A DNA stretch of 64,000 nt. Source: a virus. The stretch is from IMG/VR virus record IMGVR_UViG_3300021425_000006. One strand, written 5' to 3'. Of this stretch, positions 29,873-32,320 are shown piece after piece; positions within the stretch are counted from its first letter, which is position 1, and each line of letters opens with the position of its first letter. Position numbers and translations under genes: made by a program. Below the pieces are notes generated by a model. The model ran no database searches. It was not told the DNA's origin and was given only the letters and a program-made list of their open reading frames with translations.

Positions 29873-31048
29873 ATGTCAGAACTACTAGAAAGTCGCTGGC
29901 AGGAAACCAAAGGCGCACTTCTTGAAGGCTTAAACGGCAACAAGAAAAGCGTGATGGCTGCTACACTTGAGAATACTCGTAAGTATTTGTCAGAGAGTGC
30001 AACAGCTGGTGCAAGTTCCGCCGGTAACGTCGCAACCTTAAATCGTGTGATCCTTCCAGTGATCAGACGTGTAATGCCAACCGTTATTGCTAACGAGTTA
30101 GTTGGTGTTCAACCTATGACTGGACCAGTTGGTCAGATCCACACATTGAGAGTACGTTATGCAGATGCAGTAAACTCAACAAATGGAACAGACACAGCAG
30201 CTGGTGATGAGGCTTTAAGCCCATTCAAGATTGCTGAAGCGTATTCAGGTGCTTTAGATGATAAAGCAGCTGCTACATCAGCGTTAGAAGGCTCAGCTGG
30301 TAACAGACTTAGCATTCAAATCTTGAAGCAAACTGTAGAAGCGAAATCCAGAAAGCTATCAGCTCGCTGGACTTTTGAAGCAGCTCAGGATGCACAATCA
30401 CAGCACGGTATTGATGTTGAAGCAGAAATTATGGCTGCATTAGCACAAGAAATTACTGCTGAGATTGACCAAGAAGTAATTGCTAGCCTTTACAGCCTAG
30501 CAGGATCTGCAGAGTCAGATGTTCAATATGATCAAGCAGGTGTTAGCGGAACAGCTACATTTGTTGGTGATGAACATGCAGCTTTAGCAGTGATGATTAA
30601 CAGAGCAGCTAACAAAATTGCTCAGCGTACACGTCGTGGCGCTGGTAACTTTGCTGTTGTTTCACCACACACTTTAACAGTATTACAAAGTGCTACTACT
30701 TCAGCGTTTGCAAGAACAACTGAAGGTTCTTTTGAAGCACCTACAAATACTAAATTAGTTGGTACATTAAACAATGCAATGAAAGTATATGTTAACACAT
30801 ACGCTTCAGACGCAACTGATGTATTAGTTGGTTATAAAGGTTCAAGTGAATCAGACGCAGCTGCATTCTACTGCCCATACATTCCGTTAATGAGCAGTGG
30901 AGTTGTATTAGACCCAGACACATTCGAACCTGTTGTGAGCTTCATGACACGTTACGGATATGTTGAGTTAAACAACACAGCATCATCTCTTGGTAACGCA
31001 GCTGACTACTTGGCACGTGTAAGCGTAGCTAACGTAAGCTTCAGTTAA
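29873..31048 (+). CDS. gp23: Major capsid protein
   Basis: LPVIRRVMP..IA..LVGVQPMTGPVGQI, VEAKSRKLSARWTFEAAQD, AFYCPYIPL, FMTRYG. Confidence 0.97.
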   Translation: MSELLESRWQETKGALLEGLNGNKKSVMAATLENTRKYLSESATAGASSAGNVATLNRVILPVIRRVMPTVIANELVGVQPMTGPVGQIHTLRVRYADAVNSTNGTDTAAGDEALSPFKIAEAYSGALDDKAAATSALEGSAGNRLSIQILKQTVEAKSRKLSARWTFEAAQDAQSQHGIDVEAEIMAALAQEITAEIDQEVIASLYSLAGSAESDVQYDQAGVSGTATFVGDEHAALAVMINRAANKIAQRTRRGAGNFAVVSPHTLTVLQSATTSAFARTTEGSFEAPTNTKLVGTLNNAMKVYVNTYASDATDVLVGYKGSSESDAAAFYCPYIPLMSSGVVLDPDTFEPVVSFMTRYGYVELNNTASSLGNAADYLARVSVANVSFS

Positions 31049-31071
31049 GTTTTACTAAGCGTAAAAGCATT

Positions 31072-31099
31072 AAAGGGCGGCTTAGGTCGCCCTTTTTTT
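31072..31099 (+). terminator. Rho-independent terminator after gp23
   Basis: AAAGGGCGGC-TTAG-GTCGCCCTTT followed by a T run. Confidence 0.9.
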
Positions 31100-31189
31100 A
31101 TGACCTTTTAATGATTTTACGTATGACTTTTGCTCAATAATGTGTTTAAATAATAGTGTAGTTTTTATTAACTAACTAGGAGAAAGCAT

Positions 31190-31261
31190 ATGTGGACAAA
31201 ACCTTCATATACAGAAATGCGTTTTGGTTTCGAAGTAACAATGTATGTAATGAACAAGTAA
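31190..31261 (+). CDS. pqqA: Pyrroloquinoline quinone precursor peptide PqqA (23 aa)
   Basis: MWTKPSYTEMRFGFEVTMYVMNK*: MWxKP leader and GFEVTMY core with E-x3-Y; SD AGGAG; late motif TAAATA at 31147-52; own terminator. Confidence 0.93.
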   Translation: MWTKPSYTEMRFGFEVTMYVMNK

Positions 31262-31300
31262 AGTACATGCATAGATTGCTAGAAACGCAAGACTGCGAAT

Positions 31301-31320
31301 AACCCGCTTCGGCGGGTTTT
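31301..31320 (+). terminator. Terminator after pqqA
   Basis: AACCCGC-TTCG-GCGGGTT-TT. Confidence 0.85.
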
Positions 31321-31337
31321 CAATGATAAATATTATT

Positions 31338-31404
31338 AGAGTAGTCCACTTTAGAGACTCGCATAGGTTCATGCGTTAAAAGAATCGTAGATATCCAAAA
31401 GGAG
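31338..31404 (+). promoter_or_regulatory. Structured 5' leader with H-type pseudoknot upstream of YRG peptide
   Basis: S1 CGCAT/ATGCG (31360-64/31371-75); loop GGTTC (31366-70) pairs with GAATC (31382-86); starts at the predicted late TSS. Confidence 0.5.
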
Positions 31405-31411
31405 AAATACG

Positions 31412-31474
31412 ATGACTAAAGAACTAACATTTATATATCGCGGTGTCAAGTATACTAAAACCGTAACAGTATAA
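31412..31474 (+). CDS. 20-aa YRG peptide (DUF4278/Downstream-peptide-like)
   Basis: MTKELTFIYRGVKYTKTVTV*, strong SD AAGGAG; YRGVxY motif. Confidence 0.8.
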   Translation: MTKELTFIYRGVKYTKTVTV

Positions 31475-31511
31475 ACCAGTAGACAGGGACGTCTTTTAAA
31501 TAAATAATTAT

Positions 31512-31558
31512 ACGTTCATCCATAAGGACGGAAGTAGACAATAATGTCGAAGGAACGC
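31512..31558 (+). ncRNA. Glutamine riboswitch class I (glnA RNA motif)
   Basis: P1 CGTTC/GAACG, P2 TCC-ATAA-GGA, GGAAGTA...GAAG E-loop, P3 GACA-ATAA-TGTC; begins 5 nt after TAAATA (31501-06). Confidence 0.88.
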
Positions 31559-31584
31559 ATCTTTTAGAAATAGGAGATGTCGAT

Positions 31585-31749
31585 ATGACTAAACTACAAG
31601 CAATGGCATTTAAGCATGCCTTAAAACAAACCCTTAAACATGATAAGCACCCAAGAGTATTAAATTACAATATGCAAAAGCGTCTTGGACTTATTAGTGA
31701 TGCAAGAAAAGAACATAAAAACTTTTTTGTTCCGGATTATTTAAAATAA
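31585..31749 (+). CDS. 54-aa basic peptide downstream of the glutamine riboswitch
   Basis: MTKLQAMAFKHALKQTLKHDKHPRVLNYNMQKRLGLISDARKEHKNFFVPDYLK*; SD AGGAG; followed by a terminator. Confidence 0.8.
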   Translation: MTKLQAMAFKHALKQTLKHDKHPRVLNYNMQKRLGLISDARKEHKNFFVPDYLK

Positions 31750-32235: not shown

Positions 32236-32320
32236 GTCGATAGTGTGCCGCAAGGCGGACTTATGCTGTTTACCCACAGCGTAGCTCATAGAACGGGCAT
32301 TGGACTACTATTATAGGAGA
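32236..32320 (+). promoter_or_regulatory. Structured multi-stem 5' leader
   Basis: GCC-GCAA-GGC, TATGCTGT/ACAGCGTA and GCTC/GGGC stems enclosed by ATAGT/ACTAT; follows late motif TAAATA (32225-30). Confidence 0.5.

Follow-up and report, generated by a model that had tools for sequence, protein, structure and literature searches.

PQQ is the cofactor of the methanol dehydrogenases with which Methylophilaceae such as OM43 and LD28 consume methanol in marine and lake waters. Its precursor is the peptide PqqA, whose Glu-Tyr pair is cross-linked by PqqE with PqqD in PQQ biosynthesis, according to references cited within PMC7678222 and PMC9851590. A viral PqqA was published in 2020 from Lake Baikal, in the T4-like virus population VP_266, which has 35% GC and a predicted Methylophilaceae host; the viral peptide was proposed to boost methanol oxidation, and a sister population, VP_139, carries metK, a methyltransferase and a cytidylyltransferase (Coutinho et al. 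2020, Microbiome 8:163, PMC7678222). The novelty of a phage-borne PqqA, assumed in an earlier note on the DNA analysed here, therefore has to be given up. Viral pqqA, D and E are counted as phosphorus-cycling genes in a 2026 study of a reservoir, and in the paper on phage Melnitz (PMC9004378) PQQ appears only as a medium supplement (1 nM). We found no description of pqqA in cultured methylophages in the searchable literature.

The locus described here lies in a 64-kb stretch of viral DNA (hereafter the window). It resembles the published description of VP_266 in its T4-like background, its GC content of about 35%, its inferred Methylophilaceae host and its solo PqqA, and it may come from the same lineage; its cassette anatomy is absent from the Baikal paper. 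In the reading that we prefer, with a probability of roughly three in four, it is a host-derived pqqA cassette (a "moron") in a jumbo T4-like Methylophilaceae phage and would supply PQQ precursor to the host machinery. If the phage gene does so, it would be a rare kind of auxiliary metabolic gene whose product is a RiPP substrate, not an enzyme, and infection would reshape C1 oxidation.

The pqqA gene and its genomic surroundings

The 23-codon ATG ORF and its stop, read directly from the sequence, encode exactly the 23-residue peptide that had been quoted in the earlier note, and the Shine-Dalgarno site, the separate terminator and the position after the capsid gene that it had reported are all present (Table 1). 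In profile searches, the peptide matched both Pfam PF08042 (PqqA) and the NCBIfam equivalog TIGR02107 over the full model length, with scores that exceed both cut-offs and are far above chance; the proposed identity as a true PqqA was thus borne out by its family models. The cross-link pair lies within ...GFEVTMY..., and the length of 23 residues falls in the range of about 20–40 residues that is used as a criterion for PqqA. The leader, MWTKPSYTEMR, differs from those of Methylophilaceae hosts at positions 6 and 7 only, which are variable among the hosts too. Judged by its sequence, the ORF is a genuine PqqA gene, and it is very probably a working auxiliary metabolic gene.

Table 1. Features of the pqqA cassette and the adjoining capsid gene in the window.
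Feature	Position	Strand	Basis and details
Major capsid protein gene, gp23 type	29873..31048	+	Pfam PF07068 Gp23, 333 bits
Intrinsic terminator of capsid gene, upstream boundary of pqqA unit	31072..31101	+	10-bp stem (31072–31095), 6 GC pairs, then T7 run
pqqA box TTAATGATTTTACGTATG, operator-like	31108..31125	+	Common to host orphan pqqA genes and other phage cassettes; single copy in window
Putative promoter core TGTGTTTAAATAATA	31141..31155	+	Contains TTTAAATA; extended -10-like TG-n-TTAAAT, 37 nt after box
Shine-Dalgarno AGGAG	31178..31182	+	Read directly; 7 nt before ATG
pqqA	31190..31261	+	PF08042 46 bits (cut-off 21.1), TIGR02107 47 bits (cut-off 20); Glu15 and Tyr19 = E-x3-Y cross-link pair
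Terminator hairpin ACCCGC-TTCG-GCGGGT + TTTT	31302..31320	+	Stem-loop 31302–31317, T-run to 31320

Three overlapping ORFs, at 31192–31302 (+), 31168–31272 (-) and 31205–31372 (-), were rejected as the coding frame because the copies vary at third positions of the PqqA frame. Weak Rfam matches over the cassette (RsmY, MicX and PhrS; 19–22 bits, far under the gathering scores) were attributed to chance.

The pqqA gene starts 141 nt past the stop of the gp23-type capsid gene, which closes a head module comprising a portal, a prohead protease and a conserved head-module protein of unknown function (phrog_10922). The window, with a GC content of about 36%, is a structural region of the phage, and the nearest phage capsids at the DNA level (68% identity) belong to Rak2-like jumbo phages of about 350 kb. 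The nearest virus records, of 42.9 kb and about 98.5 kb (G006), are estimated to be 12% and 28% complete, respectively, which indicates a genome of roughly 350 kb.

A strong terminator belongs to the capsid gene itself (the fold of 31050–31110 is -19.9 kcal/mol, z = -3.2), and the pqqA ORF therefore stands between two terminators. The second of these has the composition of an intrinsic terminator, with a 6-bp stem containing five G-C pairs, a UUCG loop and a following UUUU, and the segment that holds it (31262–31330) folds at -19.4 kcal/mol (z = -2.5); a simple terminator scan missed this hairpin because its T-tract is only 4 long. The relative L222 has the identical hairpin with seven T after it, and other hairpins occupy that place in L242, L230, Venkman and MW202481. 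The assignment of pqqA as a stand-alone transcription unit is well supported by this arrangement, and the putative cassette consists of a promoter region, a Shine-Dalgarno site, the 23-codon gene and a terminator. AAGGA or AGGAG occurs at equal spacing in all phage copies that were compared.

Further downstream, a near-consensus glutamine riboswitch (RF01739, 57 bits; gathering score 35) is located at 31511–31561, directly before an ORF at 31585–31749 that encodes a basic protein of 54 residues without a family match. The stretch 32244–32329 matches the freshwater-2 RNA motif over its full length (RF02980, 69.7 bits; threshold 49.9). With AGGAG and the ATG of 32327 contained in the 3' end of this motif, the gene that follows probably starts at this ATG and not at the TTG at 32300 chosen by the ORF finder.

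The ORF shares 65 of its 72 nt (90%) with host copies, and in small phages pqqA lies near recombination genes, so it might be passive host DNA: the product of a chimeric assembly, a neutral acquisition of recent date, or an attP site or patch of homology to the several pqqA copies of the host. However, four independent assemblies (G001/L001, L222, L242 and L250) have pqqA next to the same capsid gene. The capsid-pqqA junction of G001 is identical to that of the window, and in the three other IMG/VR contigs, whose capsids are 84% identical in protein, pqqA is at the capsid 3' end. The chimeric assembly against which the earlier note had cautioned is excluded by this adjacency across assemblies. 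In addition to these common junctions, the phage flanks do not match the host flanks, and the Shine-Dalgarno site, the promoter block and the terminator that belong to the cassette have all been retained. T4-like phages are not known to integrate. Together with the synonymous changes described below, these observations make passive DNA an extremely improbable explanation.

The arrangement after the capsid gene varies among the relatives. In L222, the same glutamine-riboswitch cassette that follows pqqA in the window lies between the capsid gene and pqqA, and in L242 and L250 the entire pqqA cassette has the opposite orientation, so that it converges with the capsid gene, and ends in a different terminator. 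Therefore, pqqA appears to be mobile as a unit. Two upstream blocks, TTAATGATT(T/A)T... and GTGTGTTTAAATAATA, are kept through these rearrangements. The segment 31321–31500, with a 20-residue ORF at 31412–31474, is missing from the otherwise near-identical G001. This gap and the rearrangements in L222 and L242 point to a hotspot after the capsid gene, at which small self-contained cassettes come, go and change orientation.

Recurrence in phages, the probable host and the proposed fate of the peptide

A tblastn search of GenBank phages returned pqqA in the Methylophilales or Methylophilaceae phages Venkman, P19250A, MEP301, MEP401, MEP402 and four Melnitz genomes, in one freshwater-spring podovirus and, beyond these, only in two mislabelled contigs. 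Every cultured Methylophilales phage returned has the gene, unannotated or mis-annotated. Each phage record inspected contains an intact ORF preceded by a Shine-Dalgarno site, and a hairpin lies 3' of the copies in Venkman, MEP301, P19250A and MW202481. The records with an unannotated pqqA are MZ577095-98 (Melnitz), MW202481, MT375522, KX815270, MW452941 and OP830906/7; in those of Melnitz and in MW202481, a "hypothetical protein" is called on the opposite strand over pqqA, probably spuriously. The two contigs, named "Acinetobacter phage MD-2021a" (CAKLQF020000010.1 and CAKLQH020000055.1), were discarded as mislabelled bacterial DNA. The former, which was inspected, carries a full pqqABCDE operon beside ppk and looks like a bacterial chromosome.

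In IMG/VR, a scan with a degenerate DNA pattern found at least 120 contigs with pqqA, and about 100 of the 120 loci among the matches listed have the Methylophilaceae tail. The pattern fixes the RFGFEVTMY core by ascertainment, so that no separate support can be drawn from finding these nine codons conserved. Among the matches listed, at least 107 distinct DNA versions encode 41 peptides. Variation in the core falls on third codon positions, and outside the nine pattern-fixed codons synonymous differences slightly exceed non-synonymous ones. This pattern indicates purifying selection on the PqqA reading frame in many unrelated Methylophilaceae phages, and so many synonymous changes across the distinct viral versions are difficult to reconcile with a passive piece of host DNA.

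The peptide itself points to the host. In a degenerate-pattern scan with one genome per species, the RFGFEVTMY core matched mostly methylotrophs, and the tail ...TEMRFGFEVTMYVMNK is a Methylophilaceae signature (the VMNK tail). The phage PqqA shares 21 of 23 residues with Methylophilus and Methylotenera and 20 of 23 with Ca. Methylopumilus universalis; PqqA of Methylococcales and Methylophaga has other leaders and other tails. The host is most likely a member of the Methylophilaceae. We infer that a freshwater member is more likely than marine OM43 because the window, which also contains a glutamine riboswitch, contains the freshwater-2 RNA and because the published look-alike viruses came from Lake Baikal. 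The family proposed in the earlier note is therefore kept, on the strength of the VMNK tail, and the OM43-type host is set aside.

Ca. Methylopumilus universalis, with a genome of 1.27 Mb, encodes pqqBCDE in a single operon (404, 332, 117 and 517 bits, each score exceeding its curated cut-off) that has no pqqA in front, and it also encodes an XoxF-type PQQ dehydrogenase (593 bits). Its three pqqA copies are orphans, hundreds of kilobases from the operon. Two further Methylophilaceae genomes have five and six pqqA copies. Dispersed and differentially expressed pqqA copies were also described in a Hyphomicrobium production strain (PMC9851590) and, as cited there, in Methylovorus MP688 (Ge et al. 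2015). As the orphan copies are located away from pqqBCDE, the Methylophilaceae pathway is normally fed in trans, and a solo phage copy fits such a pathway. At the operon locus (G002, C1:576.5–583.2 kb; also in L133 and L257), the order is pqqB-C-D-E, an MFS transporter gene, a box of the pqqA type described below and a TonB-dependent receptor gene.

The earlier note had stated that no pqqB-E lies in the window. This was confirmed by tblastn with Ca. Methylopumilus proteins, which found neither pqqB, C, D or E nor two XoxF-type dehydrogenases in the 64 kb (all E > 0.9). The fetched flanks of all 120 viral pqqA loci listed from IMG/VR likewise lack pqqB-E and xoxF. The phage pqqA is thus unlinked to pqqBCDE, but such linkage is not defining in Methylophilaceae, where three of three Ca. 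Methylopumilus copies are orphans. The features expected of an auxiliary metabolic gene were found: pqqA has head-module flanks, is conserved in relatives and in other lineages, and belongs to a pathway for which the candidate host genus has pqqBCDE and xoxF.

The peptide could instead, or in addition, feed a PQQ enzyme encoded by the phage, namely a viral methanol dehydrogenase located elsewhere in the roughly 350-kb genome, as Baikal T4-like Methylophilaceae viruses with 35% GC were reported with methanol dehydrogenase, PqqA and metK (PMC7678222). We consider this unlikely. No phage PQQ dehydrogenase occurs in the window; the PqqE model (TIGR02109) and the PQQ-dehydrogenase model had no match in the relative G001, and the latter had none in five related viral records, including the approximately 98.5-kb G006. 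Moreover, the small sipho- and podophages with pqqA have no room for a PQQ dehydrogenase in the regions seen.

The best reading is that the phage PqqA serves as a substrate for host PqqBCDE. After infection, the peptide would be translated and passed to host PqqD and PqqE for the Glu-Tyr cross-link, followed by the protease, PqqB and PqqC steps. Since one peptide is destroyed for each cofactor made, it makes sense for a phage to strengthen the pathway at its precursor. With one more copy of the gene, expressed at a high level, the phage would raise or sustain PQQ for the periplasmic XoxF-type methanol dehydrogenase, and energy and carbon flow would be kept up during phage replication.

The putative promoter region and its relation to a probable host PQQ regulon

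The upstream box is common to phages and hosts. When regions upstream of pqqA were scored with a weight matrix built from it, 12 bits or more were reached in 56 of the 122 from viruses, in 12 of the 125 from hosts and in 1 of 247 shuffled controls. The host form is a 17-bp palindrome, CT(C/A)ATGATTTTCAT(G/T)AG. In Ca. Methylopumilus, only four sites genome-wide are within one mismatch of it: three are located 110–170 nt upstream of its three pqqA genes, and the fourth is just before the TonB-dependent receptor gene that comes after pqqBCDE and the MFS transporter gene. This distribution suggests a small PQQ regulon uniting the precursor genes with a probable PQQ importer (cf. PqqU, PMC12124388).

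The 15-nt promoter-core block is kept in the diverged relatives L222, L242 and L250, in which the flanks differ. Of 66 distinct viral cassettes, 40 have a TATAAT-like hexamer that starts exactly 37 nt downstream of the first position of the box, whereas the background is about 4 per offset; this spacing was not seen in host cassettes. The hexamer of the window, TTAAAT, is a weak match to the sigma70 consensus TATAAT (4/6, without the conserved A at position 2). The 37-nt spacing places the box centre near -42, which is the layout of an activator-dependent (class II) sigma70 promoter. Transcription would start near 31158, from a promoter that combines the -10-like TTAAAT with a host-type pqqA box whose centre is some 42 nt before the start. 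Host RNA polymerase would then read pqqA under the host PQQ control circuit, and the phage late machinery may also do so via TTTAAATA.

The T4 late promoter consensus is TATAAATA, and TTTAAATA, at 31145–31152, matches it at 7 of 8 positions. TAAATAC is likely the late-promoter core of this phage, as judged from its placement: it is not over-represented in the window overall (17 copies, 22 expected), and 11 of the 17 copies are in sense just upstream of (structural) genes. Positions of TAAATAC include 7190, 13574, 18532, 20813, 25503, 27142, 31806, 35176 and 53331. The pqqA motif does not have the final C of TAAATAC. The 11-mer TTTAAATAATA was rejected as a recurrent promoter of the window because it is not enriched there (14 matches, 9.4 expected).

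The earlier note had described pqqA as a stand-alone late unit. The former half of this description stands, with a terminator on each side. Late expression is an unproven attribute of this gene, as the cassette lacks TAAATAC and its motif occupies the -10 slot of a putative sigma70-type promoter at a fixed spacing; it appears at least as likely that host polymerase reads pqqA from entry onward, and both routes may apply. PQQ synthesis is slow, so a benefit within one infection would be doubtful if pqqA really is late.

The conservation of the box also bears on a different role, in which the cassette acts as a decoy and usurps the control that the host has over PQQ: the box would titrate the regulator of the pqqA and TonB-receptor regulon, or the peptide would occupy PqqD and PqqE unproductively, and host PQQ would be lowered. 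Phage copies have preserved the box, and its specificity for the host PQQ regulon is what a decoy would have. However, both the Shine-Dalgarno site and the coding frame are conserved, and the modified core including Glu15 and Tyr19 equals the host substrate in every phage copy (a core fixed by the search pattern), which is more than an inhibitor needs. We regard a decoy as highly unlikely and retain the reading of a cassette that would supply precursor.

A tentative extension of the latter, to which we give slightly less than an even chance, is that phages pass on pqqA as an entire regulatory unit taken from the host. The host PQQ-regulon operator, about 42 nt upstream of the start, and the -10 hexamer would be swapped between unrelated phages together with the gene and plugged into the circuit by which the host senses PQQ demand. 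If this is true, the same box would govern phage pqqA, the host orphan pqqA genes and the TonB-dependent, probably PQQ-importing receptor. Through this shared element, the regulation of PQQ synthesis in Methylophilaceae also becomes accessible to study.

Comparison with known pqqA genes and other auxiliary metabolic genes

The orphan pqqA genes of Methylophilaceae and the phage gene are alike in their length of 23 residues, their core and tail (20–21 of 23 residues are shared overall), the absence of linkage to pqqBCDE, a terminator of their own and the box. They differ in the leader, in which the phage has Ser6-Tyr7 and the host Ala-Ala, and in the distance from the box to the ATG, which is 81 nt in the phage and 110–170 nt in Ca. 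Methylopumilus. The 17-bp palindrome is complete in the host box, which has an additional half-site after it, whereas the phage box is mainly the left half.

The Baikal study states that phage P19250A is without these genes (PMC7678222); in contrast, our tblastn search found an intact, unannotated pqqA in it. The cultured Methylophilales phages (Venkman, P19250A, MEP301, MEP401/402 and Melnitz) resemble the window in having a solo pqqA with a Shine-Dalgarno site and 73–96% peptide identity. Among them, the box is present in P19250A and MEP301 and weakly in Melnitz, and a downstream hairpin follows the copies in Venkman, P19250A and MEP301. Their pqqA genes are located beside tRNA genes (Melnitz) or within early or recombination modules, where the neighbouring genes are often on the other strand; unlike that of the window, none is beside a capsid gene. 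The gene was missed by gene callers and is unannotated in every cultured methylophage returned by the search, and four culturable phage-host pairs allow a direct test of the proposed role.

Phage pqqA as such was already known. What is added here is the anatomy of the cassette, the host-regulon box with its fixed promoter spacing, and the correction of the "late" and "OM43" assignments. Cyanophages carry photosystem genes and other cofactor-related auxiliary metabolic genes (psbA and similar). The phage pqqA shares the logic of these psbA-type genes, in that a fast-consumed part of a host energy pathway is provided by the phage, but that part is here a sacrificial RiPP precursor and not an enzyme or a structural subunit.
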